From Clostridiaceae bacterium (GTDB taxonomy: Bacteria; Bacillota; Clostridia; Oscillospirales; QAMX01): a stretch of 64,000 nucleotides of DNA. Every line of letters starts with the position of its first letter. Within the stretch, counting starts at the first letter, position 1. The DNA lies in contig JAYFRF010000006.1 of assembly GCA_034926225.1 (NCBI GenBank), forward strand, positions 42,501 to 106,500, in the 5' to 3' direction. Positions 36,332-62,459 of the stretch are shown piece by piece. The position numbers were made by a program, and so were the translations under genes. The notes below the pieces were generated by a model that searched no databases, was not told where the DNA came from, and worked only from the letters and a program-made list of their open reading frames with translations.

Positions 36332-38482
36332 ATGGAAACCATCGCACAAATCCTTGCGCGGGAGCTTCAGCAGTCTCTCGCCAATGTGGAAAACGTCATC
36401 CGGCTGCTCGGTGAGGGGAATACCATCCCCTTCATCGCGCGGTACCGCAAGGAACAGCACGGCTCGATGGACGATACCGCGCTGCGCGCCTTAGACGAGC
36501 GGCTCGGATACTTAAAAAACCTCGCCGCGCGGCGCGAGGAGGTCAAGCGTGCCATCGCGGCGCAGGACAAGCTCTCGGACGAGCTTGCCGCTGCGATCGA
36601 CGAGGCCGAAACGCTCGCCGTCGTGGAGGATCTATACCGGCCGTATAAGCAGAAGCGCCGCACCCGCGCCACCGTCGCCCGTGAGCGCGGTCTTGAGCCG
36701 CTTGCCCTGCTTCTTTTTGCGCAGGACGACCGCGTACGCGATATCCGTATCGCGGCTGCGCCGTATATCGACCCCGAACGGGGCGTGAATACCGTCGACG
36801 ACGCGCTCGTGGGAGCCGCCGATATCATCGCGGAGACGCTTTCCGACGATGCGGGGCTGCGCGCGCAGCTGCGCGGCTTCCTTCAGCGGGAAGCCGTGCT
36901 GCGCTCGGTCAAGACGAAGGATGAGGACTCCGTCTACCGGCTGTACTACGACTTTTCGCAGGCGCTGCCGCGCGTGGCGGGGCATCAGACGCTTGCGATC
37001 AATCGCGGAGAGAAGGAGGGATACCTGAAGGTCTCCATCGAATGCGACAAAAAGCGTGCGTTGACGCTCATCCTCCGCGCCGTCGGTGTACCTGGGAGCG
37101 CCGCAATGGACTTTCTGCGCGCAACCGCCGAGGATGCGTGGGACAGACTCCTCGCGCCGTCGATGGAGCGGGAGCTGCGCACGGCGCTGACCGAAGCGGC
37201 AACCGAGGGCGCTATCCATAACTTCGCCTCAAACCTCAAGCCCCTGCTGATGCAGCCGCCGGTCAAGGGCGCGGTCACGATGGGGCTCGACCCCGGCTAC
37301 CGCAACGGCTGTAAGGTCGCCGTCGTCGACGCGACGGGCAAGGTCCTCGACACCGCCGTCGTCTACCCGACGTTCGGCGAGCGGCAGAAGGAGGAGGCCA
37401 TCGCGCATCTCTCCGCGCTGATCCGGCGTCACGGCGTGCGCTGTCTCGCCATCGGCAACGGCACCGCGTCGCGCGAGACAGAGCAGATGGCGGCACAGAT
37501 GCTCCGGCGCATCGGGGGCGATCTGTCCTATATGATCGTGAGCGAATCGGGCGCTTCGGTCTATTCGGCGTCAAAGCTCGCGGCGGAGGAGTTCCCGCAG
37601 TACGACGTGAACCTGCGCAGCGCGGTATCCATCGCCCGCCGCCTGCAGGATCCCCTCGCGGAGCTTGTGAAGATCGACCCCAAGGCCATCGGCGTGGGGC
37701 AGTACCAGCATGACATGCCCGGTGCGGCGCTCGACGACGCGCTCGACGGGGTTGTCGAGGACTGCGTGAACGCGGTGGGCGTGGACGTGAACACGGCGTC
37801 GGCGTCGCTTTTGCGGCGCATCTCGGGCCTGACAGCGGCGACGGCGAAGAACATCGTGGCGTACCGTGAGGAAAACGGCGGATTTACAAGCCGAAAAGAG
37901 CTTTTGAAGGTACAAAAGCTCGGTCCCCGCGCGTATGAGCAGTGCGCGGGCTTCCTGCGCGTCCCGGAGAGCTGGACGCTGCTCGACCGCACCGGGGTGC
38001 ATCCGGAAAGCTATGAAGCGGCGGAAAAGCTGCTCGCGCTGTTCGGCTGCACGGACGCGGACTTCCGCGCGGGAGGCATCCCCGGCATAGAGGCGCGTCT
38101 TGCCGCCTACGGCGCGGAAAACGCCGCCCGCGACTGCGGCGTCGGCGTTCCGACGATCCTCGACATCGCAAGAGAGCTGATAAAGCCCGGCCGCGACCCG
38201 CGCGACGAGCTGCCGGAGCCTATCCTGCGCACCGATGTACTCGAAATGAAGGATCTGCGCCCCGATATGATCCTTTCCGGCACCGTGCGCAACGTCATCG
38301 ACTTCGGCGCGTTTGTGGACATCGGCGTGCATCAGGACGGCCTCGTCCACATCTCGGAAATTGCCGACCGCCGCGTCCGCCACCCTTCGGAAGTGCTTTC
38401 CGTCGGGGATGTCGTGCGCGTGAAGGTGCTCGCAGTAGATGAAAAGCAGAATCGGATATCTTTATCCATCAAACAGGTTTGA
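36332..38482 (+). CDS. tex: Tex family RNA-binding transcription accessory protein
   Basis: GNTIPFIARYRKE, DPGYRNGCK, IGNGTASRE, IGVGQYQHD, C-terminal S1. Confidence 0.96.
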   Translation: METIAQILARELQQSLANVENVIRLLGEGNTIPFIARYRKEQHGSMDDTALRALDERLGYLKNLAARREEVKRAIAAQDKLSDELAAAIDEAETLAVVEDLYRPYKQKRRTRATVARERGLEPLALLLFAQDDRVRDIRIAAAPYIDPERGVNTVDDALVGAADIIAETLSDDAGLRAQLRGFLQREAVLRSVKTKDEDSVYRLYYDFSQALPRVAGHQTLAINRGEKEGYLKVSIECDKKRALTLILRAVGVPGSAAMDFLRATAEDAWDRLLAPSMERELRTALTEAATEGAIHNFASNLKPLLMQPPVKGAVTMGLDPGYRNGCKVAVVDATGKVLDTAVVYPTFGERQKEEAIAHLSALIRRHGVRCLAIGNGTASRETEQMAAQMLRRIGGDLSYMIVSESGASVYSASKLAAEEFPQYDVNLRSAVSIARRLQDPLAELVKIDPKAIGVGQYQHDMPGAALDDALDGVVEDCVNAVGVDVNTASASLLRRISGLTAATAKNIVAYREENGGFTSRKELLKVQKLGPRAYEQCAGFLRVPESWTLLDRTGVHPESYEAAEKLLALFGCTDADFRAGGIPGIEARLAAYGAENAARDCGVGVPTILDIARELIKPGRDPRDELPEPILRTDVLEMKDLRPDMILSGTVRNVIDFGAFVDIGVHQDGLVHISEIADRRVRHPSEVLSVGDVVRVKVLAVDEKQNRISLSIKQV

Positions 38483-38944
38483 TTATCTAGCTCATACCTT
38501 GCAGGGGGCGCTTCGCCCCCCTGCACCTCCCGACCTCTTTCTTTGCGCGAGCAAAGAAAGAGGGAAAGAAAGCTCGCTTAAGGGGACTGAAGTCCCCTTA
38601 AGTATCCCTCCGGTGTTGCGTCGCCTGCGGGCGACGCTTATACGGGGGCTTACCTTTCATAAAAACAGAGATGCCGTCGTTTTCTGATCCTTTCTGAAAA
38701 GCTTACCCATGTTCTAGGGTGGCATTTTCCGTTCGGATAGACAACGACGGCATTCTCAGCCATACACAAGCTAAACTCCCGTATAAGCATCGCGAAGCGA
38801 TGCCGTTCCGGAGAGATTCTTAAGAGGACTTTAGTCCTCTTAAGACGGCTTTCTTTGTTACTTTCTTTGCCGGGGCAAAGAAAGTAGCCCGGAGAGGTCC
38901 GGAGGGGCGGGCAGCGCCCTCCGGGAGTATGAACCAGATAATCA
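38480..38944. repeat. Composite palindromic multi-hairpin element, copy A (core type I)
   Basis: Two inverted arms of 4 hairpins; highly similar to 42893-43335 and 61981-62459. Confidence 0.92.
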
Positions 38945-38970
38945 GCCCTGTTCGACGAATAAAGAATACC

Positions 38971-40698
38971 CTATTTCGCTTTGTAGACGACGAAAGCATT
39001 CGGTATCTGACGCCCATCCGTCTTATTCGATCCGGACGGGTACGTAATCACGCGGCCGTTGTAGTACATAACGGAGGACGACCCGCCGTCGAGGGCGCTT
39101 GCCTGGACCGCGCCGTATTTTGCGAGAATCCTCGCGCCATCGATGGACTGACACCCCAAAGAGCTTGCCGAGCGGCCGTTGATAACGAGCATCAGGACGG
39201 TACCATCGGCGGTCTGTCCGAGCGCCGTGCGGGGGTTGATGCCCCAGCCGTCGTTGACCGTGACGACGATCTCGCCGTTATTGATGAGCAGGGGTTTGAA
39301 TTCCGCCGCGTCGCGCAGCTCGCGATCGAGCGACTTATACGAGCCTGTGAAGAGGACATTGTCATAGTCAAATCCGACGACCTTCCAGCTCTCGGTCTTC
39401 GACAGAACCTCACCGTCCGAAACGACATAGCCGTACGGCGAGCCGCCGTTGCCCGTACCACCGTCGTCGACGAAGCCCGAGGCGTTGATGCCGAGAATCG
39501 CACCGTTGTCCTCGCACAGCGTGGGGATGCGCTGCCCGACGCTCCACAGCTTCTTCGTTACGACTAAGCCCACCTGCGCCGGGTCGCGCACAATCGCAAG
39601 GACGCCGTTGAAGCCGTCGCCGGTGACGCGAACCAGCAAAATCCCGTTGCGCGTATCCAAGGCAAGCACCGTGTCACCGTTCGTCGTCTGGATCGTCGTG
39701 CCTTTACCATCGCGGTCTGCTTCGTCGATCATCAGATAGCCGTCCGCGTCGAACATCGCGTCTCCCTTCGTCAGCGCATAGCGGTTAAACGAGGCGATGT
39801 CCAACTCCGGATACGCAAGATACAGCGGATGATTCGGGTCGAGCCATTCGGATATATCGCGTACCGTCGTCGTCGTAGCAGTCGCCGCCGTCGTCGCCTG
39901 CGAGGACGCGGCTGTCGTTCCGGCCGGCACGGTCGGCTGGGTCGCCGTCGTCGTGCCGCGCAGCGCGCCAAGCGTCGTGTTGTCGGTCGGTTTGACAAGC
40001 TCCTTGTCGGATACCATGTCCGCCTGCTCCTCGTCGAGCTTATACCGCGCCGTGACCGCTTCGTCAATGATCGATTTCGGGATGAACGCCGTCGCCAGCC
40101 ACTGGTGCGACTTTGTGCTCATCGCTGTTTCAATGTAGATCGTGCGCCATTTCGCGATGAACGCGTTGGGCGAAAACACCGCGATCAGATACAGCGCGAT
40201 CAGGAGCACCGCTGCGATGCCGACACGCCACGGCCAGCGCAGACGCCGCTTTTTTACGGGCATCTCCGGCTCCGGAACCCGTTCCGGCAGCCTCACACGA
40301 GGCGCGACCGGGGGTTTTGCACCGCCCGCCCCGCTCGCGCCGTCCGGCTCATGAGACGAGGTAAATACCACATCCTCATCGTCGACCCAGCGATACCCCG
40401 CCTGCCCCGGACGCGGTGCATTCACAGGATTTGTCTGCTGCACCGCCGGACGGACGGGCTGCTTTGACTGCGGCTGTGGTATGCGCGGCTGTGGTGTCGG
40501 ACGTGCCGTAACCTGAGGCTGCAGTGTGCGCGGCGCGGATGCCGACTGTACCGTAGTTTGCTCCGTATCGTCGTCGATCAGATAGTATCCCGCATTATCC
40601 CGAGCGTAAGTATCCTGCTTTGCAGGCTCACCCTCCAGCGCGGAGGAACCGTTCGTTTTCCCGTTCACGCGGCGGCCGCCGCCTCCGTATAACTTCAT
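38971..40698 (-). CDS. Phosphodiester glycosidase (NAGPA/EpsL-like) membrane protein
   Basis: GINASGF, NPRTALGQ, ALDGGSSS; single TM; Pro/Thr-rich linkers. Confidence 0.9.
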   Translation of the reverse strand: MKLYGGGGRRVNGKTNGSSALEGEPAKQDTYARDNAGYYLIDDDTEQTTVQSASAPRTLQPQVTARPTPQPRIPQPQSKQPVRPAVQQTNPVNAPRPGQAGYRWVDDEDVVFTSSHEPDGASGAGGAKPPVAPRVRLPERVPEPEMPVKKRRLRWPWRVGIAAVLLIALYLIAVFSPNAFIAKWRTIYIETAMSTKSHQWLATAFIPKSIIDEAVTARYKLDEEQADMVSDKELVKPTDNTTLGALRGTTTATQPTVPAGTTAASSQATTAATATTTTVRDISEWLDPNHPLYLAYPELDIASFNRYALTKGDAMFDADGYLMIDEADRDGKGTTIQTTNGDTVLALDTRNGILLVRVTGDGFNGVLAIVRDPAQVGLVVTKKLWSVGQRIPTLCEDNGAILGINASGFVDDGGTGNGGSPYGYVVSDGEVLSKTESWKVVGFDYDNVLFTGSYKSLDRELRDAAEFKPLLINNGEIVVTVNDGWGINPRTALGQTADGTVLMLVINGRSASSLGCQSIDGARILAKYGAVQASALDGGSSSVMYYNGRVITYPSGSNKTDGRQIPNAFVVYKAK

Positions 40699-40877
40699 AT
40701 CTTAACTTATCCTTTCGCGTTCCGTTTACATATGTTAGACGAATTCGCTATAAAAATTGTTTCCCCAAAAGAAAACCGTTTTCGTGTTATTCTATCACAA
40801 TCCGCGCTTTTTTACAAGGATATATTGCGTAAGGAATTTCGAATTTTTGGCATAGCTTTATGCCATGCAAAAAATAA

Positions 40878-40930
40878 TATCATAAGACGTATAATACTAC
40901 TTGACAAATGATATTATACATGGTATAGTA
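40878..40930 (+). promoter_or_regulatory. Promoter with two palindromic PadR-type operators
   Basis: TTGACA-17-TATAGT; TATTATAC-ATG-GTATAGTA (40912) and TATCATAA-GAC-GTATAATA (40878). Confidence 0.65.
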
Positions 40931-40952
40931 TCAACCGTAAGGAGGGGAGCGG

Positions 40953-41309
40953 ATGGATCCTCAGTTAAAAAAGGGATTGCTGGACGCGTGCGTGCTCGCG
41001 GTGATCGAGGACCGTGACACGTATGGGTACAGTCTGACGCAAAAGACCGTGGAGCTGCTCGGCGTATCGGAGTCGTCGCTGTACCCGGTGCTTCGGAGAC
41101 TGGAGCAGCAGGGGTGCTTTGAGACGTACAATGCGGAATACGGCGGCCGGCTGCGCAAGTACTACCGGATGACGCCGAAAGGACAGGAGCGGCTCAGCGA
41201 TATGCGGGCGGATATGAATGCTCTGCACCGGATTATTGAATTTATCATGGGAAACGACGCGAAAAAGGATGGAATTACGCGTCTTTCGGACGGAGGGGAA
41301 GCCAAGTGA
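40953..41309 (+). CDS. PadR family transcriptional regulator
   Basis: QLKKGLLD...YGYSL...SLYPVLRRLE...GRLRKYY. Confidence 0.93.
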   Translation: MDPQLKKGLLDACVLAVIEDRDTYGYSLTQKTVELLGVSESSLYPVLRRLEQQGCFETYNAEYGGRLRKYYRMTPKGQERLSDMRADMNALHRIIEFIMGNDAKKDGITRLSDGGEAK

Positions 41310-41932
41310 CAAAGGAAGCGTTTTTAACGGCGCTTGCAAACGGTCTGTCGACGCTGCCGCAGGAGGAGCGCGACGAAGCGCTGCGGTATTACCGCGAATA
41401 CATCGAAGACGGCGTGGAAGCCGGGCGAAGCGAGGCCGATGTCGTCGCCTCCCTAGACCCACCGGGGACGATCGCGCTGCAAATCTGCCGGGAGTCCACC
41501 TTTAAGCGTGCGGCGGCGCGTCCGACGCCGCGCAACACCTCGCGGGCGCTGGCGGCGGTGTTCGGGGTGCTGTCGCTGCCGGTGACACTGCCGATCGCCC
41601 TCTGTCTGATCGCAGCGGCCTTCTGCGTGGTCATCGCGGCGTTCGCGGTGGCGGCATCCGTCGCGGCGGGCATCGTCGCGGTCGTCGCGGCGGCACTCGT
41701 GATGGGGGTGCGGTCGATCTGGTTACTCGCGGCGGGTGTTATGACCGGCAGTGCGGCGGTGTTCACCGTCGGACTCGGGCTTTGCGGTGTCGCGGTCGCA
41801 ATTTTCTCGGTGATCGCACTTTCGTATGTACTCTACGGCGTCGGGAAAGGTGTCGGACGGTTCTTTCGCTGGTTAGGCGGCACGGTACGTAAGCTCGGCA
41901 ACAAAAATCGGAAAGGAGGGGAAGCCGCATGA
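41306..41932 (+). CDS. DUF1700 (HAAS) membrane protein
   Basis: MTKEAFL..L...L..LPQEERDEALRYYREYIED; TM C-terminus. Confidence 0.88.
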   Translation: MTKEAFLTALANGLSTLPQEERDEALRYYREYIEDGVEAGRSEADVVASLDPPGTIALQICRESTFKRAAARPTPRNTSRALAAVFGVLSLPVTLPIALCLIAAAFCVVIAAFAVAASVAAGIVAVVAAALVMGVRSIWLLAAGVMTGSAAVFTVGLGLCGVAVAIFSVIALSYVLYGVGKGVGRFFRWLGGTVRKLGNKNRKGGEAA

Positions 41933-42858
41933 AAAAAACGATGAAAACGCTCGCTGTTATCGCGGCTGTCCTTTTAAGTCTCGGCCTGATCGTCTGCGTA
42001 GGCGCGATGGCAACGACGGAAAATGGCTTCCGGGACGCCGTGTCCTGGTTTACGACCCCACTCTTCGTCAGCTGGGACAACAATACGCACCGTCTGCGCG
42101 TCAGCGTTCCCGAGGAATACGGCGAGCCCGCGTCGTATGACTTCACAGCCGCCGGCGCGATTCGCGAAATTGTCATCGAAACCGTCTCGCCGCGCATCCG
42201 TCTCGTACCTACTGCCGGCATCGACCGCATGCGCGTGCATTATACCGAGCGCTATGACGGCCAGTTCATCGTCGCGGAGGACGGCGGCACGCTGCGTATC
42301 ACACAGGACGCCGTCATCGGTTCTGTCGGCCTCGATTTTCAATCGCTGACGGAGGAAATCATTATCGAATACCCCTCAGGAACCGCGCTGGACGCACTGA
42401 CCATCGAAAGTGTCAACGGGTCCGTTGACATCGGCGCGCTGACCGCGAAAACGGTCAGGCTTGGCGGCACGAACGGCGGCGTCCATCTTTCGGAGCTGAC
42501 CGCGAACACCGTCGTCTACGCAAGCGTCAACGGCAGTCTGACCGGCACGCTCACCTGCGACAGTCTGACGGCGAACACAACCAACGGCGGCTTCACGCTG
42601 GCGCTCGACGCGCGGAGTGCGGAATTCGCCCACGTCAACGCCGACATCAAACTGACGCTTGCGGGTTCCCCGGGCGAATACGCCCTAGACTACAGCGCCG
42701 TGAACACCGATCTTGAATTCAACGGCCGCGACTTAGACGCGGGACAGTATACCTTCACCGCCGACGGCCGCCCCATCGTCGGCGTAGCCAACGCCGCGCG
42801 CGTCCTCCGCATCAGCGGCACCAACGGCGGCGTCTCCCTTGAGACGGTGCGGCCTTAG
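41929..42858 (+). CDS. DUF4097 beta-strand repeat protein
   Basis: Signal anchor; repeated S/T-x-NG-x-V units; PadR-DUF1700-DUF4097 operon. Confidence 0.85.
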   Translation: MKKTMKTLAVIAAVLLSLGLIVCVGAMATTENGFRDAVSWFTTPLFVSWDNNTHRLRVSVPEEYGEPASYDFTAAGAIREIVIETVSPRIRLVPTAGIDRMRVHYTERYDGQFIVAEDGGTLRITQDAVIGSVGLDFQSLTEEIIIEYPSGTALDALTIESVNGSVDIGALTAKTVRLGGTNGGVHLSELTANTVVYASVNGSLTGTLTCDSLTANTTNGGFTLALDARSAEFAHVNADIKLTLAGSPGEYALDYSAVNTDLEFNGRDLDAGQYTFTADGRPIVGVANAARVLRISGTNGGVSLETVRP

Positions 42859-42892
42859 GCAGAAGGCACCTTTCTTAACAAACCTTCCCGTT

Positions 42893-43335
42893 GCTGATAC
42901 CTTGCAGGGGGCGTTTCGCCCCCCTGCACCCTCCGACCTCTTTCTTTGCGCGAGCAAAGAAAGAGGGAAAGAAAGCTCGCTTAGGGGAACGAAGTTCCCC
43001 TAAGTACCCCTCCGGGGTTGCGTCGCCTGCGGGCGACGCTTATACGAAGGTTTCCCTCTCATATAAACAGATATGCCGTCGTTTTCTGATCCTTTCCGAA
43101 AAGCTTACCCTTGTTCTTGGGTGGCATTTTCCGTTCGGATAGACAACGACGGCATTTTCAGCCTTATACAAACTAAACTCCCGTATAAGCATCGCGAAGC
43201 GATGCCGTTTTCGGAGAGCTTCTTAAGAGGACTTTAGTCCTCTTAAGCGAGCTTTCTTTCCCTCTTTCTTTGCTCGCGCAAAGAAAGAGGTCGGGAGGTG
43301 CAGGGGGGCGAAGCGCCCCCTGCAAAGGTATGAGC
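42893..43335. repeat. Composite palindromic multi-hairpin element, copy B (core type I)
   Basis: Same architecture as copy A; between convergent genes. Confidence 0.92.
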
Positions 43336-43366
43336 TTAGAATAAAGTCTGTTGAAAAAAGGAAAGC

Positions 43367-45187: not shown

Positions 45188-45488
45188 AAAAGATTCCTCC
45201 AAAACATAAATAAGCACCTGTTTTTTCCACTTAACCAATCTATTATACCACATAGTAAAAGCGTTGTAAACGCCGAATATTCACAACCGTTCCCCCCATT
45301 CCCCACCGCTTTTATGTTATTTTCGTTCATTTCCCCTTCTCTCCATCCATTCCCCTGCAAAAAGCACCCGTGCGGCGGCCGACGGAGATGCATCTCCCCC
45401 GCCTTTGTAAAATAGCTTGCATTTTATTCCCCAGTATGGTATAATATACACAGACTGCATAAAACCGTTTTTTAGGAGCCATTCCACG

Positions 45489-47330: not shown

Positions 47331-47346
47331 CGGGGGGATATAGCAC

Positions 47347-48126: not shown

Positions 48127-48138
48127 TGGGGGACAACC

Positions 48139-50023: not shown

Positions 50024-50183
50024 TGGTACTCCTTTCACAAAGGCGTGACTTGTGGTTGTCGTAATTCCAGAATTCTTCATTTATGTTTATTATAGCGTTT
50101 TCGGGTGGTAAAGTCAATACACAAAGTGTTAACAGTGGCCGCGGTATAAGGAGACTGCCGTATGGGGAAAGCGTCCCCTCGGT

Positions 50184-51191: not shown

Positions 51192-51366
51192 ACGCGGCCT
51201 TTGCCCCTTTCTTCCTTATAGGTTTAGTATACCACCCTCCTATCTGATTGTCAACGCGCCGCGACTCGTTTTTGCACATATTGTACCATTTTAGTGTCCC
51301 CGCTGTCTCTCAGATTCGGTCGAATATGTGTTGACATTCCCCTGTTTTTCGGGTATAATCAATATT

Positions 51367-51510
51367 GCCATAAAGAGTGCGTGAGAGACAAGCTCGTTGA
51401 CCGCACAGCAACCTGGCCGTTTTATAAAAAGCGGAAAAGGTGCTAAAGCTTGACCGATGGGGAAATACCGGAAGTATGGACGCACCCATCACGAATGGGC
51501 GCGTTTTTTA
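51367..51510 (+). promoter_or_regulatory. SAM-I (S-box) riboswitch lacking P4, with terminator
   Basis: CCATAAAGAG...CAGCAACC...AAGGTGCTAAAGCTTG...ATGG; promoter TTGACA-17-TATAAT (51331/51354); terminator ACGCACCCAT...ATGGGCGCGTTTTTT; upstream of metK. Confidence 0.85.
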
Positions 51511-51557
51511 TATGCGGATTGCCCCGAAACGACTATTTATTTGAAAGGACCCTCCCT

Positions 51558-52733
51558 ATGAAACGTCTGTTTACCTCCGAATCCGTGACCGAGGGGCATC
51601 CCGATAAGGTTTGCGACCAGATCGCCGACGGCGTGCTTGACGCGCTGCTTGCGCAGGACCCGCAGTCCCGCGTAGCCTGCGAGGTGGCCGCTGCGACGGG
51701 CATGATCCTCGTCATGGGCGAAATCTCCACGAACGCGTATGTCGATATCCCCGCCATCGTGCGCCGCACCATCCGCGGCATCGGCTACGACAACGCCGAC
51801 TACGGTCTTGACTACCGCACCTGCGCCGTGCTGACGGCGATCGACGAGCAGTCTCCGGATATCGCGCTGGGCGTCGATCAAGCGCTGGAATATAAGACGG
51901 CGGGGCACGACCCGGCCGACCTCCTCGGCGCGGGCGATCAGGGCATGATGTTCGGCTACGCCTGCGACGACACGCCGGAGCTGTTTCCCGCACCCATCGC
52001 GTACGCCCATCGCCTTTCGCGTAAGCTCGCCGAGGTGCGCAAAAGCGGCGCCCTCCCCTACCTGCGTCCCGACGGAAAGACGCAGATCACCTTTGCCTAC
52101 GACGACACGGGGTGTCCCGTGTATATCGATACGGTGGTCCTCTCAACACAGCACGCGCCGGACGTCGCCATGGATAAACTGCGCGCCGAGGTGCTGGAGA
52201 CGGTCATCCACGCAGGCCTTCCGGTAAACCTGCTGCGTCCCGACACGAAATATTATATCAACCCCACCGGACGCTTCGTTCTGGGCGGCCCTGCTGCCGA
52301 TACCGGGCTGACGGGCCGGAAGATCATCTGCGACACGTACGGCGGCATGGCGCGTCACGGTGGCGGCGCGTTTTCAGGGAAGGATCCGACGAAGGTGGAC
52401 CGCTCGGCGGCGTATATGGCACGGTTCACCGCAAAAAACGTCGTCGCGGCGGGACTCGCGCACCGCTGTGAGATCGGTGTGGCCTATGCCATCGGTGTCG
52501 CGAAGCCGGTTTCGATCTACGCGGACACCTTCGGTACGGGCAGGCTTGCGGACACGCGCATCGCGGACATCGTGGCGGAGGCGTTCGATTTCCGGCCGGC
52601 GAAGATCCTCGAGCGCTTCGCCCTACGCCGTCCGCTGTACCAGCAAACCGCCGCCTACGGCCACTTCGGCCGCACGGACATCGACCTGCCCTGGGAACGC
52701 CTCGACGACGCGTTTATAACGCAGAAGTTCTAA
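51558..52733 (+). CDS. metK: S-adenosylmethionine synthetase
   Basis: [35 protein letters not shown]. Confidence 0.98.
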
Positions 52734-53603
52734 ATGGTAACGAAAAAGCAATGGATCGCGAACGGATTGCTGCTGTTAACAGCGGCAATCTGGGGCTTTG
52801 CCTTCGTATCGCAAAAGGTAGGCGCGGAACATGTCGGTGCATTCACCTATAACGGTGTGCGTTTTACGCTGGGCGGCCTTGTGTTATGGCCGGTGATCGT
52901 CGTGCTGGACCGCAAATCGCCCCCGATGGCCGAGGTCCGGCGCCAGACGCTGCGTACCGGGCTTGTCGCCGGTCTGATACTCTGCACGGCGGCATCCCTC
53001 CAGCAGATCGGTGTCGCTTATACAACAGCGGGCAAGGCGGGCTTTTTAACGGGTCTGTACGTGGTTTTAGTGCCGGTTTTCGGCTTTCTGTTCCTACGCC
53101 AGCGCGTGAAGGCCCCCGTCATCGCCGGCATGCTGCTCGCGGCGGGCGGCATCTACCTTTTAAGCGTGACGGAAGCCTTCACCATCGGACGCGGCGACCT
53201 GCTCGTGCTGCTCGCCGCCGTCCTATGGGCGGTACATATCCTCTACATCGATCACTATGCCGACCGCATCCACGCGCTACGGATGTCGTCGATCCAGTTC
53301 CTCGTCACGGGGCTCCTAAGCCTCCTGATCGCCCTGATCACGGAGCCGTTCTCCGCCGCCGCGTTCCTGTCGGCTCTCCCTGCGATCCTCTACGGCGGAC
53401 TTTTCTCCGTGGGCGTCGGCTATACACTGCAGGTGATCGCCCAGAAAAACGCCAAGCCCGCCCACGCTGCGATTCTCCTAAGCATGGAGTCCGTCTTCGG
53501 CGCCTTGGGCGGCGCGCTGCTCCTGCAAGAGCGCATGGGCGTGCGCGGGGCTGTCGGCTGCGCGCTGGTGTTCATAGCGATCCTTCTTTCGCAAAAACAA
53601 TAA
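52734..53603 (+). CDS. DMT/EamA family transporter
   Basis: AAIWGFAFVSQK, GKAGFLTGLY, GDLL, AILLSMESVF; 10 TM. Confidence 0.92.
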   Translation: MVTKKQWIANGLLLLTAAIWGFAFVSQKVGAEHVGAFTYNGVRFTLGGLVLWPVIVVLDRKSPPMAEVRRQTLRTGLVAGLILCTAASLQQIGVAYTTAGKAGFLTGLYVVLVPVFGFLFLRQRVKAPVIAGMLLAAGGIYLLSVTEAFTIGRGDLLVLLAAVLWAVHILYIDHYADRIHALRMSSIQFLVTGLLSLLIALITEPFSAAAFLSALPAILYGGLFSVGVGYTLQVIAQKNAKPAHAAILLSMESVFGALGGALLLQERMGVRGAVGCALVFIAILLSQKQ

Positions 53604-53613
53604 ATTCTGCTAA

Positions 53614-53970
53614 CTCATACCTTGCAGGGGGCGCTTCCCGCCCCCCTGCACCCTCCGGGCTACTTTCTTTGCACCGGCAAAGAAAGTAACAAAGAAAGCC
53701 GTCTTAAGGGGACTAAAGTCCCCTTAAGTATCCCTCCGGGACGAGCGGCGACTTCGCGCCGCTTATACGAAATAGAGCAGCTGATTACCAAAAGCATCTT
53801 TGTGATGCGTAGCAGTAATCAGCTGCTCTTCTTCGTCTAAGAAACGCCCGCAGGCGTTTCTCCCCCGTCCCCAAAAGGTGCTTTCTTGTCCAGTATTCTT
53901 TCTGCCGCAGAAAGAATACTGGCGCGGGGTGGTCCGGAGGGGCCGAGAAGGCCCCTCCGGAAGGTAACAG
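53614..53970. repeat. Composite palindromic multi-hairpin element, copy C (core type II)
   Basis: Left arm as in copy A; core GAGCAGCTGATTAC...GTAATCAGCTGCTC; reverse-complement relative of copy D. Confidence 0.9.
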
Positions 53971-53997
53971 CCAGAAGAAAGTACCAGCCACAAGGGA

Positions 53998-55284: not shown

Positions 55285-55330
55285 GGGCTGATCCTCCTTT
55301 GTCATGGGGTTATTCTATAAAATAGTGATA

Positions 55331-56470: not shown

Positions 56471-56511
56471 GGTGCATTTCTCCTTAGTATATAGCAATCT
56501 TTCGGTTACGC

Positions 56512-58722
56512 TTATGGGTTCTCGTCCATCACGACCTGCCCTGAGTCCTCGGGCTTTGCCGCCATACCGGCGGCGGGCAGGGTCTTCACCCGATATCGCT
56601 TCGGATTTTGAAGGTGCGCGTCGGCAAACGTCAGCGCCCGCTCGAGCCTGTACTTCGCCGCAAACGTCATGACACTGATGCCCTGCGTGTCGCGCGACGC
56701 TTTCGGCGCAAGCATCGCCGTATGCAGCAGTAAAAGCTTCCCGTTTGTCGCGTACAGCGCGAATTCCGTGTCCTCCGTGAACGCAAATGCCGCGATCAGG
56801 GGAGATGCCGTCGAATACGCGCCCGTCAGGCGGCGGCGGTTCGACTTCGTCTCGTACGACTTCATCGGGACTCTCGCCGCCTTGCCGTTTTCGAAAACGA
56901 ACAGCAGCGAGCCTAGGTAATCCCCCGGCAGGAACGCGAGCACCGGGCGCTCACCGTCGTCCATCCCGAGCTTTTGCGGGATAAAATCGCCGAGTACGCT
57001 TGCTTTGCAGTCTTCAAACTCAGCGAGTGTCGCCTTATACGCCTGCGCGCGGTCTGTCAGGAAGATGATCTCCGCTGAGCTGCGCGTCTCGGCGCTCCAG
57101 CGCAGGTTATCGCCTTCCTTAACCTTCTGCTCGCCGGACATGCGCAGAGACTGCGGCGTGATCTTTTTAAAGTATCCCTCCCGCGTCAGGAACACGGTGA
57201 CGGGATAGTCGTTCTCCTCCTCGGGGATTTCCTCGATCTCCGAAGGCTCTAAAAGCATCGTGCGGCGCGGCTGGCCAAACTTTTTCGAGACAGCGGCGAG
57301 CTCCTTTAGGATGATCGCCTGCAGCTTCGTTTTGCTCTTGACCGTGGCTTCCAGCTCGTCAATCTCTTTCATTAACGCTTCGGTCTCCGCGACGCGTCCT
57401 AGGATATACGCGCGGTTGATGTTGCGTAAGCGTATCTCCGCAACATATTCCGCCTGCGCCTCGTCGATGCCGAATCCCACCATCAGGTTCGGGATGACGT
57501 CCTCTTCGCGCTCGGTGCCCCGGATGATCGCGATCGCACGGTCGATATCCAGCAGGATCTTCTCAAGGCCGAGGAGCAGATGCAGCCGCTCCTTCTTTTT
57601 CGTCATATCGTAAAAGACGCGGCGCTTCACACATTCGGTGCGCCAGGCGATCCACTCGGTAAGGATTTCGCCGACGCCGAGCACGCGGGGGTTGCCTGCG
57701 ATGAGGACGTTGAAGTTGCAGCCGAAGGTGTCCTCGAGCGGCGTCGTTTTGAAAAGTTTCTGCATCAGGCGGCCGGGATCCTGCCCGCGCTTCAAGTCGA
57801 TCGCGAGCTTGAGTCCCGAAAGGTCGGTCTCGTCGCGGATATCGGAGACCTCCTTCAATTTACCCGTCTTGATCATCTCCGCGCACTTGTCCATAACGGC
57901 TTCCACCGTCGTCGTATACGGCAGCTCGGTGATTTCGATGATATTGCCGTCGGCGCGCCACTTGGCGCGGACGCGAAAGGTACCTCGGCCCGTTTGGTAG
58001 ATGCGCAAAAGCTCGTCGCGGTCATACAGTAGAAGCCCTCCGGTGGAGAAATCGGGGGCGATAAGGGTCGAGAGCACGTCGTGGGCGGGGTTTTTGATCA
58101 TCGCTGCGGTCGTCGTGCAGACCTCGGCGAGGTTAAACGAGCAGATCATGCTCGCCATGCCGACGGCGATGCCCTGGTTGGGCGTGACGAGGATATGGGG
58201 GAAGGTCGTCGGCATAAGGGTCGGCTCGCGCATCGTATTGTCGTAATTCGGCACAAAATCCACGGCGTCGCAGTCGATATCGCGGAAAAACTCCGCGCAG
58301 ATGCCGTCGAGCCGTGCTTCCGTATAGCGGGCGGCGGCGTAGGCCATATCGCGGGAGTAGACGCGTCCGAAGTTGCCCTTAGACTCGATTAGAGGATGCA
58401 GGAGCGCGCCGTTACCACGCGAAAGGCGTACCATCGTCTCATAGATCGCCGCGTCGCCATGGGGGTTTAAGCGCATGGTCTGGCCGACGATGTTCGCCGA
58501 TTTCGTCAGGCTTCCGCCGAGCAGCCCCATCTTATACATGGTATAAAGGAGCTTCCGGTGGGAGGGTTTAAGCCCGTCGATCTCGGGGATGGCGCGAGAG
58601 AGGATGACGCTCATCGCGTAGGGCATGAAGTTATTGACAATCGTTTCGGTGATGGGTTGTTCGACGATCACCGCGGGCGCGGCAGTGTCGGCGCGATGGG
58701 AAGGGGGTTGCTTCTTGGCCAT
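56512..58722 (-). CDS. parC: Type IIA topoisomerase subunit A (ParC-like; no GyrA box seen)
   Basis: RAIPEIDGLKP, PHGD, AAARYTE catalytic Tyr, GIAVGMA, PDFSTGG. Confidence 0.8.
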   Translation of the reverse strand: MAKKQPPSHRADTAAPAVIVEQPITETIVNNFMPYAMSVILSRAIPEIDGLKPSHRKLLYTMYKMGLLGGSLTKSANIVGQTMRLNPHGDAAIYETMVRLSRGNGALLHPLIESKGNFGRVYSRDMAYAAARYTEARLDGICAEFFRDIDCDAVDFVPNYDNTMREPTLMPTTFPHILVTPNQGIAVGMASMICSFNLAEVCTTTAAMIKNPAHDVLSTLIAPDFSTGGLLLYDRDELLRIYQTGRGTFRVRAKWRADGNIIEITELPYTTTVEAVMDKCAEMIKTGKLKEVSDIRDETDLSGLKLAIDLKRGQDPGRLMQKLFKTTPLEDTFGCNFNVLIAGNPRVLGVGEILTEWIAWRTECVKRRVFYDMTKKKERLHLLLGLEKILLDIDRAIAIIRGTEREEDVIPNLMVGFGIDEAQAEYVAEIRLRNINRAYILGRVAETEALMKEIDELEATVKSKTKLQAIILKELAAVSKKFGQPRRTMLLEPSEIEEIPEEENDYPVTVFLTREGYFKKITPQSLRMSGEQKVKEGDNLRWSAETRSSAEIIFLTDRAQAYKATLAEFEDCKASVLGDFIPQKLGMDDGERPVLAFLPGDYLGSLLFVFENGKAARVPMKSYETKSNRRRLTGAYSTASPLIAAFAFTEDTEFALYATNGKLLLLHTAMLAPKASRDTQGISVMTFAAKYRLERALTFADAHLQNPKRYRVKTLPAAGMAAKPEDSGQVVMDENP

Positions 58723-58744
58723 AGTTTTTCCTTTATATAATATC

Positions 58745-59118
58745 TGATTATTTAGATCATACTTCCGGGGGACTTCTCGTCCCCCGGACCCCCGCGCCAG
58801 TATTCTTTCTGCGGGACGTGTCACTTCGTGACACTAAAGAATACTGGACAAGAAAGCACCTTTTTGGGGACGGGAGGAAAACGCCTGCGGGCGTTTTTTA
58901 TACGAAGGAGAGCAGATGATTACTAAACGTACCGATAAAGATGCATAACAGTAATCAGATGCTCTCCTTCGTCTAAGCGGCGCGAAGTCGCCGCTCGTCC
59001 CGGAGGGATACTTAAGGGGACTTCAGTCCCCTTAAGCGCGATTTCTTTGTTACTTTCTTTGCGCGTGCAAAGAAAGTAACCCGGAGGGTGCAGGGGGGCG
59101 GGAAGCGCCCCCTGCAAG
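58745..59118. repeat. Composite palindromic multi-hairpin element, copy D (core type II, inverted vs C)
   Basis: Arms and core match the reverse complement of copy C. Confidence 0.9.
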
Positions 59119-59156
59119 CTTCCCATTGCTTCCTGCCGGAAGCAATGGGAGGAGGC

Positions 59157-59921
59157 CTAACCGATGGCGTAAAACCGGGAAGCGTTACGGAAAGTCAGCT
59201 CCGCAGCCTCTTCATCGGGGATGCCGCGCAGTGCAGCGACGGTCTCGCAGGCGCGGTAGAGATACCGGGAGTCATTGCGGCGGCCGCGATAGGGCTCCGG
59301 CGCAAGGTAGGGGCAGTCCGTCTCGATGAGAATGGTTTCAGGCGGCAGGCTTTTGATAATCGGTTCGAACTTTTTGGCGTTTTTAAACGTGATAATACCG
59401 TTAAAGCCAAAGACAAACCCGAGTTTTAAGACGTCACGGGTCATTTCGAGGGAACCCGAATAGCTGTGGAACACGCCGCGCACGCCGGGGTGGGCGCGGA
59501 GGATGTCGAGAGTATCGGCGTGTGCCTCGCGGTCGTGGACGCAGACGGGAAGGTCAAGGTGCCGCGCCAGCTCGAGCTGACGGGCAAAGACCTCCTTCTG
59601 GACGGCGCGGGGGGCATACTCATAGTGGTAGTCAAGACCGATCTCGCCGACGGCGACGACCTTTTCATGGCGATAAAGGGCTTCGAGCGCGATAAAATCG
59701 TCCTCCGACGCCTCGTGTGCCTGCTGCGGATGCACGCCGACCGCGGCGTAGACAAAGGGATACTTTTCCGCAATGGTAATGGCGGTCTTTGCGCCGGAAA
59801 GGTCGCAGCCGATCTCGACGATGCGCTCGACACCAGACGCGTGCATCGAGGAAAGCACCTCGTCGCGGTCCTCGTCAAAGCGCTCGTCCTCGTAATGGGC
59901 GTGGGAATCGAACAGTCTCAT
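59157..59921 (-). CDS. tatD: TatD family hydrolase
   Basis: FDSHAH, GVHP, GEIGLDY, HDREA, ETDCPYL; follows metG. Confidence 0.95.
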   Translation of the reverse strand: MRLFDSHAHYEDERFDEDRDEVLSSMHASGVERIVEIGCDLSGAKTAITIAEKYPFVYAAVGVHPQQAHEASEDDFIALEALYRHEKVVAVGEIGLDYHYEYAPRAVQKEVFARQLELARHLDLPVCVHDREAHADTLDILRAHPGVRGVFHSYSGSLEMTRDVLKLGFVFGFNGIITFKNAKKFEPIIKSLPPETILIETDCPYLAPEPYRGRRNDSRYLYRACETVAALRGIPDEEAAELTFRNASRFYAIG

Positions 59922-59926
59922 CTTCC

Positions 59927-61879
59927 TTAGTGAATGGAGGAGCCTGCCGGGATGCCGTCGGCGAAGATTACACGCACATCGTTATCGCCGGCGTCGGCCG
60001 CGAGGAGCATCCCCTGACTCTCGACACCGCGCAGCACGGCGGGCTTGAGGTTTGCGACGATGATAACCGAGTGTCCGATGAGGTCTTCGGGCTTGTACCA
60101 CGGCGCGATGCCGGAGACGATCGTGCGGCCGACCTCTCCGTCGTCGAGCGTCAGCTTTAAGAGCTTTTTCGCTTTCGGCACCGGTTCGCAGGCGAGAATC
60201 TTCGCAACGCGCAGGGAGACCTTGGCAAAGTCCGCGATATCGATCATCGCGACGCCTTCGGGCTTTTCCGTTTCCGGCGCTTTCTTTTCCGGTTCCTTCT
60301 TTTCATTCTCGGCGGCATGGACCGCTGCGACTTGCTCGGCGAGCGCCTTCTCATCAATGCGGGCGAAGAGCGTTTCGGCGGTGCCGAGCGTCGTGCCGGC
60401 TTCCAGCGCGCCCCATGCGAGGGTTTCGATGCCCGCTTCGGGGAGGTTATACTGCGCGCGGATGCGCGCCGCGGTATCCGGCAGGAAGGGCGCGAGCAGC
60501 GCCGCGGCAAAACGGATGGACTCGATTAGGTTATAAATCACTGTCGCGAGCCTCGGACGGCTGTCCTCGGACTTCGCGAGCGTCCAGGGCGTCGTCTCGT
60601 CGATATATTTGTTCGTGCGGCGCAGGAGCGTCCAGATATCGTCGATGGCATCCGCGACATGGAGGGTTTTCATATCCTCGACGGCGTCGGCAAGGGCTTT
60701 TTCTGCGACAGCGCGCAGCTCGTCGTCGAGCGGGGCGCCTTCACCCGGCGCGGGGACGATGCTGTCGAAGTATTTAAGTGTCATGGCGTGAGTGCGGGAG
60801 ACGAGGTTGCCTAAAATATTCGCGAGGTCGCCGTTGTACCGGGTCATAATCTGCTCGTAGGTGAAGCTGCCGTCGGAGGCAAATGGCATCTCGCGCAGCA
60901 TGTAGTAGCGCGTTGCGTCGACGCCGAAAAGCTTCACAACCTGCTCGGCGTAAACGACGTTGCCCTTCGACTTTGACATTTTATCCTCGCCGAAAAGCAT
61001 CCACGGATGACCGAAAACCTGTTTCGGCAGCTCAACGCCGAGAGCCATCAGCATGATCGGCCAGTAGATCGTGTGGAAGCGGAGGATATCCTTGCCGATG
61101 AGATGGACGTTCGCGGGCCAGTACTTATTAAACAGCTCGCCCGAGTTGCCGTCGGGGTCATAGCCGAGGGCGGTGATATAGTTCGACAGCGCGTCGATCC
61201 AGACATAGATGACGTGTTTAGAGTCAAAGCTGACGGGGATACCCCAGTCAAAGGAGGTGCGGGAAACGCATAAATCCTGAAGCCCCGGGCGGATGAAGTT
61301 ATTGAGCATCTCGTTTTTGCGGCTTTCGGGTTGGATGAAGTCGGGATTGTCGAGGATATACTGTTCAAGGGCGGGGGCATATTTAGACATCTTAAAGAAG
61401 TAAGCCTCCTCCGACGCGCGTTCGACCTTCGCGCCGCAGTCGGGGCAGCAACCGTCCTTAAGCTGTGTTTCGGTGAAGAAGCTTTCGCAGGGCTTGCAGT
61501 AGTAGCCCTCGTAGGAGCCTTGATAGATATCGCCCTGATCGTAGAGCTTTTTAAAGATTTTCTGCACGATTTCCATATGGGAAGAGTTAGTCGTGCGGAT
61601 GAACTGGTCATACGAGACGTTCATAAAGTCCCAGATGCGGCGGATCTCTCCCGCGACGGCGTCGACATGCGCTTGAGGGGTCTGGCCTTCCGCTTTCGCC
61701 TGATCCTGAATCTTCTGGCCGTGCTCGTCGGTGCCGGTCAGGAAGTAGACGTCGAACCCTTGAGCGCGGCGGAAGCGGGCGATGGCGTCGGCAAGGACGG
61801 CTTCGTAGGTATTCCCGATATGAGGCACCTTCGACGTATACACGATAGCGGTGGTTATATAGAACTTTTTGCCGTTCAT
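59927..61879 (-). CDS. metG: Methionine--tRNA ligase (MetRS1 type with C-terminal tRNA-binding OB domain)
   Basis: PHIGN, GTDEHG, CKPC/CPDC knuckle, KMSKS, TPW, ESQGM; promoter TTGCAT-17-TATAAT at 61926-61954. Confidence 0.97.
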   Translation of the reverse strand: MNGKKFYITTAIVYTSKVPHIGNTYEAVLADAIARFRRAQGFDVYFLTGTDEHGQKIQDQAKAEGQTPQAHVDAVAGEIRRIWDFMNVSYDQFIRTTNSSHMEIVQKIFKKLYDQGDIYQGSYEGYYCKPCESFFTETQLKDGCCPDCGAKVERASEEAYFFKMSKYAPALEQYILDNPDFIQPESRKNEMLNNFIRPGLQDLCVSRTSFDWGIPVSFDSKHVIYVWIDALSNYITALGYDPDGNSGELFNKYWPANVHLIGKDILRFHTIYWPIMLMALGVELPKQVFGHPWMLFGEDKMSKSKGNVVYAEQVVKLFGVDATRYYMLREMPFASDGSFTYEQIMTRYNGDLANILGNLVSRTHAMTLKYFDSIVPAPGEGAPLDDELRAVAEKALADAVEDMKTLHVADAIDDIWTLLRRTNKYIDETTPWTLAKSEDSRPRLATVIYNLIESIRFAAALLAPFLPDTAARIRAQYNLPEAGIETLAWGALEAGTTLGTAETLFARIDEKALAEQVAAVHAAENEKKEPEKKAPETEKPEGVAMIDIADFAKVSLRVAKILACEPVPKAKKLLKLTLDDGEVGRTIVSGIAPWYKPEDLIGHSVIIVANLKPAVLRGVESQGMLLAADAGDNDVRVIFADGIPAGSSIH

Positions 61880-61980
61880 AACAAGCGTTTTCCTCAGCTT
61901 TCCTGAAAGATAGTATTCACTATGTATTATATCCCAAACACGGGAGGAATGCAAGGTCTTTATTGAAAAAGCGCGTTCTT

Positions 61981-62459
61981 TTCTGATACCTTGTCCTAAC
62001 TCAGACTTTGCAGGGGGCGTTTCGCCCCCCTGCACCTCCCGACCTCTTTCTTTGCGCGAGCAAAGAAAGAGGGAAAGAAAGCTCACTTAGGGGAACGAAG
62101 TTCCCCTAAGTACCCTTCCGGCGTTGCGCCGCCTGCGGTCGGCGCTTATACGAAGGTTTACCTTTCATCATATAAAAGTGCCGTCGTCTTCTGATCCTTG
62201 CCGAAAACTCACCCTTGTTCTCGGGTGGCATTTTCAGTTAGGACAGAAAACGACGGCGCTTTCTGTTTCATACAAGCTAAACTCCCGTATAAGCATCGCG
62301 AAGCGATGCCGTCTTCGGAAGGGTGCATAGGGGAACTTTAGTTCCCCTATGTGTGTTTCTTTTCCACTTTCTTTGCACAAGCAAAGAAAGTGGCTCGGAG
62401 GGTGCAGGGGGGCGAGAAGCGCCCCCTGCAAAGGTATGAGTTAGTATAAGGTATCAGAA
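61981..62459. repeat. Composite palindromic multi-hairpin element, copy E (core type I)
   Basis: Same architecture as A and B; outer IR reaches the stop codon at 62454. Confidence 0.92.

Follow-up and report, generated by a model that had tools for sequence, protein, structure and literature searches.

The window analysed here, a stretch of 64,000 nucleotides (nt) from a Clostridiaceae bacterium, corresponds to positions 42501-106500 of contig C8 in an 18-contig assembly (G000) of 2.83 Mb that is 96.7% complete. Among the genes of this window lie five large palindromic elements, here called A to E, which an earlier note on this DNA had singled out and all of which were found again where that note had placed them. 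Each consists of two inverted arms of ~165 nt around a core, to a total of about 340-490 bp, and the only open reading frames (ORFs) extending into the elements are frames of 82-83 aa, which are probably due to chance. The elements are probably an orphan, non-autonomous, non-coding mosaic quasi-palindromic repeat, whose mover and function we infer. The repeat family as such is real and well supported, and its mobility mechanism, its triplex or pseudoknot fold and its function are treated below as hypotheses.

The arms are built from four hairpins, H1 to H4, which follow each other in identical order in each arm and were recovered by a hairpin scan as perfect or one-mismatch stems, in agreement with the note. 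H1 reads TGCAGGGGG..CCCCCTGCA, with the variants CCGGAGGG, CCCGAGGGG and TCCGGGGGAC; H2 reads (CCT)CTTTCTTTGC-N4-GCAAAGAAAG(AGG), with the variant CCAGTATTCTTTCTG-N3-CAGAAAGAATACTGG; H3 is CTTAAGGGGAC, CTTAGGGGAAC, CTTAAGAGGAC, CTTAGGAGGAC or CATAGGGGAAC, each with its exact complement; and H4 is GCGTCGCC, GCATCGC, AGCGGCG or AAACGCC. Both of the core types claimed by the note are present, and each goes with its own combination of arms: the type 1 elements (A, B and E; ~460-480 bp) are organised as arm-a, core 1 and arm-a, and the type 2 elements (C and D; ~385-415 bp) as arm-a, core 2 and arm-b. Arm-b is a second type of arm, in which H1 and H2 are of the variant kind, H3 is degenerate and H4 belongs to the AAACGCC type, and it is the arm in which the note had rightly seen a degenerate H3 in C and D. 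In element C it comprises H4' AGAAACGCC, the degenerate H3, H2b CCAGTATTCTTTCTG and H1b TCCGGAGGGGCC; element D has an additional outer hairpin, H0, at 59119-59152 (CTTCCCATTGCTTCC..). The right arm of element A has an H1 of the CCGGAGGG type, and core 1 contains a long imperfect hairpin, which in element B is located at 43074-43154. On both strands the core hairpins are followed by short tails that contain T. An outer consensus, AGGTATGAGCTAGATAATCAG, is variably truncated, which makes the ends of the elements fuzzy.

In order to follow the evolution of the stems we aligned 30 arms and supplied the structure by hand, namely H1-H4 and a three-pair helix between loop and tail. Standard pairs fill 89.1% of the 1,295 cells, against 48-59% when the partners are slid by 1-3 columns, a control that retains the relatedness of the arms. 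Both sides have changed in 23 of the 44 pairs (shuffle mean 13.2, sd 1.6; none of 500 shuffles reaches 23) and in 118 cells, against 39.6 in shuffles; the arm copies share ancestry, and these covariation counts are to be read as counts and not as probabilities. H3 is 99.7% paired; 7 of its 11 pairs have changed on both sides, and one-sided changes are absent. H3 (AAGGGGA or AAGAGGA) is found with H4 (GCGTCGCC or GCATCGC) in all four possible combinations, each H2 loop type occurs alongside three or four H3 types, and modules thus recombine between copies. The covariation counts and these combinations confirm the compensatory stem changes and the shuffling of arm variants between copies that the note had described. 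Its picture of non-coding, modular repeats that resemble bacterial interspersed mosaic elements (BIMEs) is supported. The hairpins have been preserved, by selection or by conversion, despite a divergence of 10-25% between copies.

The folding energy of element B is -300.7 kcal/mol (shuffles -146.7 +/- 7.1; z -21.7) and that of its minus strand -306.5 kcal/mol (z -28.1), and element C folds with -204.5 kcal/mol (z -17.0). The fold of C is a ladder of local hairpins with cross-arm linker stems, as the note had envisaged for the family, whereas the minimum-energy fold of the near-perfect palindrome B is a single long hairpin without a ladder. Analyzing the 47 internal stem mismatches of 32 arms it is possible to see 6 of the G.T or T.G type, 15 of the A.C or C.A type and 26 of other types. 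A constraint on one RNA strand would favour G-U pairs; the lack of a G-U excess and the equal folding of both strands suggest that the constraint lies on the DNA or affects the two strands equally.

Table 1. The five elements of the window, with the hairpins of one arm and the module conserved across phyla.
Feature	Position	Strand	Parts and remarks
Element A, type 1	38472-38951		left arm-a 38472-38648; core 1; right arm 38775-38951
Element A, hairpins of left arm-a	H1 38500-38525; H2 38534-38563; H3 38577-38602; H4 38618-38637
Element B, type 1	42875-43352		most symmetric copy; left arm-a 42875-43051; right arm-a 43177-43352
H2-L2-y module, element B left arm	42937..42986	+	part conserved across phyla
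Element C, type 2	53599-53984		left arm-a 53599-53772; core 2 hairpin 53775-53828; right arm-b 53831-53984
Element D, type 2	58740-59152		inverted relative to C; left arm-b 58740-58908; core 2; right arm-a 58966-59125
Element E, type 1	61981-62458		left arm-a 61981-62157; core 1; right arm-a 62281-62458

The five copies to which the note had limited the family are part of a genome-wide set. A blastn comparison of the five elements with the assembly gave 33 merged loci, 9,291 nt in total and about 45 arms, and the family is the main dispersed repeat of this genome. A hidden Markov model (HMM) of the arm, run with nhmmer, gave 65 matches at E <= 1e-3, among them 32 copies of arm-a with at least 70 bits and about a dozen weak copies of arm-b. 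The loci are located on contigs C5, C7, C8 and C10-C16, and the largest contig, C2, is without any. Some of them comprise a solo arm only, and a strong, unrelated hairpin then lies immediately on the inner side of that arm. Between the most similar copies the agreement is no higher than 83-89%. Several arms lie at contig ends, repeats being a frequent cause of breaks in metagenome-assembled genomes (MAGs). Two such ends, C11:1-147 and C14:106906-107052, lie inside arms that are reverse-complementary to each other, and C14 and C11 are probably joined by one element at which the assembly breaks.

When G000 and 40 relatives were searched for the arms, matches were found in three of the 41 genomes, G000, G001 (16 matches) and G003 (6); the third congener, G002, and all 37 genomes outside the genus had no arm match. 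These results show a family spread within one genus. Stretches of 9 kb and 12 kb of the window were compared with the three congeners and the empty sites were then confirmed by alignment. At the sites of B, D and E the intergenic regions of G001 measure ~106, 86 and 92 bp, against 440-540 bp in G000, and site D is short, i.e. empty, also in G002 and G003. Sites B and E of G001 have an ordinary hairpin-plus-T-run terminator instead of the element. Site C is occupied in G001 by an element that has an H1a-type right arm, with the host terminator hairpins retained on both sides, reflecting either an independent insertion or turnover. Presence and absence of the element thus differ between species, as the note had anticipated. 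Its statement that a clear target-site duplication is missing also stands: no direct repeat is found at the five window copies or at the other copies listed, and the species with empty sites are too diverged to give the ends at base level. The inverted matches at the edges of E (TTTCTGA/TCAGAAA, 7 nt) and of A (AACAGG/CCTGTT) may be due to chance. A metagenome scan with the neighbouring 254-aa protein returned 45 loci, of which the best reached 67% identity, too low for a close strain, and no nearer relative with an unoccupied site was found. In an independent run, X3, DNA contigs connect E with the sequence on either side of it and also lead from the flanks into D; no contigs joining across an element were found.

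The position of the elements relative to genes is strongly biased. An ORF heuristic guided by the G+C content of third codon positions (GC3) assigned 27 loci, 15 as convergent, 8 as tandem, 0 as divergent and 4 as unknown. At D and E it had taken weak ORFs (GC3 0.53-0.54), and after both were re-read as tandem the 23 classifiable loci comprise 13 convergent, 10 tandem and 0 divergent ones, all of them touching the 3' end of a gene. The chance of finding 0 of 23 divergent is ~0.001, assuming that a quarter of intergenic regions are divergent. The gap between an element and the neighbouring stop codon measures -8 to +58 bp in most cases, and in A and E the two adjoin directly; A is situated between convergent genes, and the TGA of a 726-aa ORF (36302..38482) lies at its outer edge. 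The claim of the note that every copy follows a gene 3' end holds, with the addition that D and E, in tandem arrangement, lie also upstream of the next gene. From this position right after stop codons it follows that the elements sit where terminators sit, and the comparison of species shows that they occupy post-stop space in which sister species carry plain intrinsic terminators.

One part of the arm, formed by H2 and the linker behind it, extends far beyond the genus, a feature that the note had missed. The pattern TTTCTTTGC-N4-GCAAAGAAAG-N4-AAAGAAA, which specifies 26 bases, was run against one genome of each species and matched at least 106 stretches in at least 46 assemblies (by record title) from at least five phyla. 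The shared module is 34 nt long and recurs almost letter for letter. The carriers among the matches listed include 16 Pseudoxanthomonas, Chiayiivirga, Luteimonas and Thermomonas; Pasteurellaceae (Lonepinella, Haemophilus paracuniculus and 'Pebbles2'); Aquabacterium, Sulfuriferula and Caballeronia; Ruminococcus, Oscillospiraceae, Porcipelethomonas and other Clostridia; a Selenomonadaceae MAG; several Bacteroidota; and a Latescibacterota MAG and an Elusimicrobia MAG. The module is multi-copy, with 10, 9 and 19 H2 hairpins in three whole genomes (0 in a control with the reversed pattern), and it is rare, being found in one of 401 evenly sampled genomes of the class of the window, namely G000, and absent from the other 400 of 400. 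This patchy, multi-copy pattern fits the horizontal spread of a selfish element, and the module may have spread in that way.

Around the module the sequence is lineage-specific and the architecture recurrent. Among the matches listed, 91 strong modules were testable, and for 50 of them an inverted partner lies further inward, at 279-588 nt (median 397). One element of Pseudoxanthomonas and one of Pasteurellaceae, when folded, show the same fold of outer stem, hairpins and cross-arm stems (z -21.0 and -15.3). In Pasteurellaceae the core between the arms is a terminator hairpin of the host type, and solo arms adjoin such hairpins. At loci L191 (~3180-3415) and L073 (4120-4640) the Pasteurellaceae core, or the hairpin beside a solo arm, is a terminator made of an inverted pair, which we take to be a pair of the Haemophilus uptake-signal core. 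A similarity in the flanks of Pseudoxanthomonas elements was considered as a gene start and rejected; it is an outer module of the element, next to cheV-like and flgA-like genes. Near elements of two Pseudoxanthomonas loci (L096 and L163) there are G/C-rich motifs, CCCCTCTCCC .. GGGAGAGGGG TT GGGGTGAGGGG, of a BoxC/TMECO-like kind. Locus L168, filed as a Kiritimatiellae MAG, has an arm almost identical to those of the genus of the window and of 'Clostridiaceae bacterium MAG107' (L100, L140 and L170), through either mis-binning or recent transfer.

The module of the left arm of B consists, in this order, of a pyrimidine strand CCTCTTTCTTTGC, the loop GCGA, a purine strand GCAAAGAAAGAGG, a third-strand-like stretch GAAAGAAAG and a tail, CTCGC, complementary to the hairpin loop. 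The same relation recurs in the other variants, in which the 4-nt loop with its closing G-C is complementary to the bases after the second purine tract. The loop/tail pairs TTGT/CACA, TCGT/CACG, TGCT/GCAGC, TGGT/GCACC, TCCT/CAGG, GCGA/GCTCGC, GCCA/GCTGGC, GGGT/CACC and ACGC/GCGC belong to ~10 distinct covarying pairs. The mean length of the complementary run is 4.43 nt, against 3.37 nt with shuffled tails (reached in 0 of 1000 shuffles), and within the genome 3 of 3 loop-tail pairs covary (helix 4 of the arm alignment). The pairs at the foot of H2 covary as well (AA/TT, TT/AA, TA/TA, TC/GA and CA/TG, in a table read by eye).

The stretch between hairpin and tail often repeats the stem, a further point that is not in the note. 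A copy of at least 6 nt of the 3' strand follows 24 of 55 hairpins whose 3' strand is purine-rich in the elements and 1 of 42 in background contigs. In asymmetric variants the copy is a mirror image: AAAGAAAA followed by AAAAGAAA (Pseudoxanthomonas right arms, 7 loci, and a Clostridium MAG), AAAAGAAAAA followed by AAAAAGAAAA (Selenomonadaceae), AAGAAAAG followed by AAAAGAA (Ruminococcus) and GAAAGAATA followed by ATAAGAAAG (arm-b of the window genome). A mirror copy cannot form Watson-Crick pairs with the stem; it fits a third strand. H3 and the pyrimidine linker following it change together, GGGG with CCCC or CCC, GAGG with CTCC and GGAGG with CCTCC (by eye), as they would, on reading the sequences, for a pyrimidine third strand. 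Holder 2015 (PMC4666352) defines intrastrand triplex-forming (ITxF) motifs by three blocks of 6-15 nt, with one mismatch allowed above 7 nt, and loops of 1-6 nt, and class II among them by a pyrimidine block, a loop, a purine block, a loop and a mirror purine block. By reading, and at the level of the pattern, the module corresponds to class II, with CTTTCTTTG, a loop of 6, CAAAGAAAG, a loop of 3-4 and GAAAGAAAG or CAAAGAAAC, with one mismatch; its complementary strand has the layout of a pyrimidine-motif triplex. The tail-loop pairing would lie where the third strand would arrive, which fits the topology of an H-type pseudoknot.

We propose tentatively that the H2-L2-tail module (40-50 nt) may be an unnamed, horizontally spreading triple-helix pseudoknot unit, whose elements would be targeted to terminator hairpins, in five phyla or more, without an element-encoded transposase, for instance through structure-guided copying by a host enzyme, and that the ladders may be arrays of three triplex units per arm. 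Within the probable reading of the elements as an orphan mosaic repeat, a single strand of each module, either DNA in replication or repair or the RNA of a 3' untranslated region, would fold as a hairpin, the purine or pyrimidine linker after the hairpin would lie along the stem as a third strand, and the tail of the linker would pair with the hairpin loop, giving a triplex or a pseudoknot. The whole element, when transcribed, may represent a bidirectional transcript-end structure for termination or 3'-end protection, and its fold could be recognised by whatever copies the element.

Several observations weigh against this reading as an orphan mosaic repeat. Concerning mobility, no two copies are near-identical, which speaks for no recent copying or movement; the X3 strain has D and E at the same sites and offers no strain-level polymorphism; and without a target-site duplication, sharp ends and an autonomous parent, transposition is unproven. 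Concerning the association with transcript ends, one Pseudoxanthomonas element lies between divergent cheV-like and flgA-like genes, so that the 3'-end rule is not universal. A scan with a terminator consensus gave 25 sites, against 21.1 +/- 4.9 in shuffles; the terminator-like sites flagged were two H3 hairpins, both in E, and weak core sites, and in the other arms a T-rich tract begins 5 nt past H3. Concerning the fold, direct and mirror copies are indistinguishable in the commonest, periodic variant of H2, and the 21 distinct 3' strands with a copy of at least 6 nt divide into 9 mirror, 6 tied and 6 direct. The third strand would moreover require the opening of three covarying pairs at the foot of H2. 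Holder 2015 (PMC4666352) reports that RNA does not form triplexes of the purine motif, and that the E. coli motif, which had no promoter or terminator activity, formed one only when isolated as a single strand and neither within double-stranded DNA nor in vivo.

Some of the same evidence would be expected if the elements were stand-alone or 3'-untranslated structured RNAs, e.g. a triple-helix pseudoknot that blocks 3' exonucleases, spread by benefit to the host; a large structured RNA was one of the two readings offered by the note. The strong covariation of the stems and of the loop-tail helix and the location directly after stop codons are in favour of such RNAs, and the complementary strand, or far arm, reads U-rich, pyrimidine, purine, which is the RNA-compatible U.A-U order (class IV in Holder 2015). 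Contigs of an RNA library that are identical to the window continue from the 3' end of the gene at 59157-59921 into the right arm of D; this library may however hold DNA, and contigs cannot reveal transcript ends. In RNA run X4 no contig covers 57900-58754, downstream of D, or most of E, which is no evidence of termination; two joints within the contigs (58867 to 58967, and 62309 back to 58996) apparently derive from other copies of the family. The stem mismatches speak against RNA, with G-U in only 6 of 47, as do the equally good folding of both strands and the related element between divergent genes. A scan found no promoter within the elements. In Rfam 15, the window at gathering score has five matches (four tRNAs and one SAM riboswitch), none of them within the elements; element B in E-value mode matches only sroE, with 16.3 bits against a gathering score of 51; and ten foreign module loci gave one tRNA and nothing on the module. 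This agrees with the note, which had not recognised the elements as a named family. We consider structured RNA an unlikely explanation of the whole family.

The multi-copy distribution, patchy over phyla and varying in presence between species, could equally be that of an ordinary miniature inverted-repeat transposable element (MITE), i.e. a deletion derivative of an insertion sequence (IS) with a DDE transposase, in which the arms would be the terminal inverted repeats and the parent would be lost, unassembled or in another genome. The elements are small, without an ORF of their own, and end in long inverted arms, as MITEs with terminal inverted repeats do; the arms found at contig ends would agree with a parent hidden at breaks of the MAG assembly. 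The searches for such a parent were negative. PF01548 (IS110) and PF07282 (TnpB) have 0 matches in G000, PF00665 (rve) has one sub-threshold match with an internal stop, and PF01609 (DDE_Tnp_1) gives only fragments, in frames of 116-123 aa; the statement of the note that no transposase lies nearby is thus supported. A self-megablast found no IS-like dispersed repeat of at least 700 bp in the genome. Judged by eye, the frames in the longer repeats of the genome (C1/C3 and some contig ends) resemble those of ABC ATPases, lipoproteins and methyltransferases. No autonomous IS with the same ends, and no element-sized repeat bearing them, is present among the 33 loci in 2.83 Mb. Among the matches listed (106 foreign loci) no inverted modules lie 1-8 kb apart around a gene, and the clustering of 1,690 ORFs from these loci gave no neighbouring protein family shared beyond a few taxa, except generic ones. 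A blastn search of plasmids (PLSDB) with element B and a Pseudoxanthomonas element returned no match, in a search whose low-complexity filter may hide the module, and the module pattern has 0 matches in the 2.9 million viral contigs of IMG/VR. Further against a MITE, target-site duplications are missing and the ends fuzzy, the cores vary between copies, solo arms adjoin unrelated hairpins, and the internal hairpins are conserved as structure, which a plain end bound by a transposase does not need. An ordinary MITE appears quite improbable.

The strictly Watson-Crick stems on both strands and the polypurine mirror repeats are in favour also of a DNA-level structural site without mobility of its own, in which cruciform or H-DNA palindromes would grow at terminator hairpins by template switching and persist as recombination or replication-pause sites. 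The arms always face a locus-variable central hairpin, of the host terminator type in Pasteurellaceae, and the inverted repeat at times runs a few bases into the flanks. TMECO motifs are likewise described, in Holder 2015 (PMC4666352), as occurring also in inverted pairs and as tied to local instability, and a role in genomic instability has been proposed for BoxC/TMECO. Local growth cannot explain, however, how a 34-nt module comes to be in at least 46 assemblies of several phyla, or why all 400 other genomes sampled from the class lack it, and unrelated loci share whole arms and cores, which makes this explanation very unlikely.

The weakest candidate is the other reading proposed by the note, a REPIN/BIME-type system moved by a RAYT (Y1 HUH) transposase, and it is rejected as hardly credible: its inverted hairpin pairs, mosaic order, extragenic location and structure-preserving changes resemble REP doublets and BIMEs as we know them, but PF01797 (Y1/RAYT) has 0 matches in G000, G001, G003 and G043, with a control search positive in 6 of 14 reference genomes, the hairpins have no GTAG-type head, and the reading fails its defining test since a RAYT is absent from the three element-bearing genomes of the genus. 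The module-bearing genomes G041 and G042 each have one Y1 gene, that of G041 200 kb from the nearest module and that of G042 adjoining its own GTAG-headed REP array, unrelated to the ladder family. The copying enzyme of the element is not a RAYT. The array of G042 (Pasteurellaceae; L191, 1740-2720) comprises a RAYT-like Y1 ORF of 176 aa followed by 3-4 tandem units of ~118 nt, each holding a GTAG-headed REP palindrome, and is a classical REP/RAYT pair.

The nearest described kind of repeat is the BoxC/PIT/TMECO group of intrastrand triplex repeats of Enterobacteria. Holder 2015 (PMC4666352) describes TMECO as a pyrimidine block, a purine block and, after a 3-nt loop, a second purine block on one strand. 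BoxC/TMECO are there multi-copy repeats that lie exclusively between genes, are strongly conserved in many genomes and in some cases form inverted pairs, with no link to transposons, phages or plasmids and with their function given as unknown; TMECO is more often upstream of ORFs and confined to Proteobacteria (PMC4666352). The three-block layout is common to both systems, and the complementary strand is of the pyrimidine motif in both. The sequences are unrelated, the TMECO consensus CCCTCNCCC-N3-6-GGGNGAGGG-N3-GGGNGAGGG being G/C-rich and the module described here A/G-rich (CTTTCTTTGC..GCAAAGAAAG..AAAGAAA). Unlike BoxC/TMECO, the motif of the present family shares an arm of 165 nt with two or three further modules, the arms are paired around a core, and loop-tail covariation, the crossing of phyla and a strong bias to gene 3' ends are features of it. 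Six strings of 21-24 nt from the module did not occur in the literature searched; supplementary tables such as the ITxF lists of Holder 2015 may include the motif without naming it. Among the papers listed that contain both short module halves none, judged by title, was on bacterial repeats; none of those listed on palindromic repeats in Pseudoxanthomonas was relevant by title or start of abstract; and none was found on miniature inverted-repeats in Oscillospiraceae. No printed description of a cross-phylum module in such repeats was found in these searches.

Other families share single traits with the elements. REP/BIME sequences are extragenic palindromic units arranged in mosaics with set linkers and inverted doublets, often at gene 3' ends, and REPINs are inverted doublets of imperfect palindromes of 20-40 nt with a conserved head such as GTAG, the RAYT gene being usually flanked by repeats. 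The likeness lies in extragenic mosaic palindromes, inverted pairs and paired changes that keep the structure. The hairpins of our family, in contrast, measure 17-34 nt, have no common head and form a fixed series of four different units with a core, and the element is ten times longer than a REP and is found in genomes of the genus without a RAYT. Correia, ERIC, pneumococcal BOX and Neisseria NIME sequences are small, non-coding, multi-copy and intergenic with stable folds, and BOX and NIME are modular. Together with MITEs they resemble the elements in being small, non-coding, multi-copy and intergenic with inverted ends; REP/BIME, NIME, BOX and Correia sequences are analogues as mosaic or foldback repeats. 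The elements differ from MITEs and the small modular repeats by their 165-nt arms of nested hairpins, by the variable core, by the lack of a target-site duplication and of a parent IS among our finds, and by an arm in which a single module is kept from phylum to phylum and the remainder varies with the lineage. Intrinsic terminators that act in both directions likewise lie between convergent genes right after the stops, and sister species carry plain ones there, whereas the elements show no clear U-tract and no enrichment in the terminator scan, and are far larger and more elaborate than termination needs.

Some further features of the window were recorded. A SAM (S-box) riboswitch (54.2 bits) is found at 51365-51482, upstream of the ORF 51450..52733. 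A TTGACA-17-TATAAT promoter block is repeated upstream of tRNA genes at 15897-15934, 21634-21671 and 29494-29531. A direct repeat of 100 nt, 98% alike, at 29724-29823 and 35384-35483 contains the 3' part of tRNA-Tyr (tRNA 29682-29766) and a terminator hairpin, and looks like attL/attR of an island of ~5.7 kb integrated at tRNA-Tyr.

REP, BIME, BoxC and MITE sequences shape transcription ends, mRNA stability and genome plasticity, and the function and the mover of BoxC-type triplex motifs have been open since the 1990s. The present family is a richer data set for these questions, with several modules per arm, dozens of diverged copies and paired, possibly three-way, changes. The module occurs in isolates from distant phyla that can be cultivated (Pseudoxanthomonas, Lonepinella, Haemophilus paracuniculus, Porcipelethomonas and Aquabacterium). 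A biological use of single-strand triplex or pseudoknot folds is testable through mutation of the third strand or of the tail. At least 46 assemblies carry the module and all 400 other genomes sampled from the class lack it, a phylogenetic contrast for finding the enzyme. If the elements replace terminators, they would be relevant to the annotation of operon ends in these genomes.

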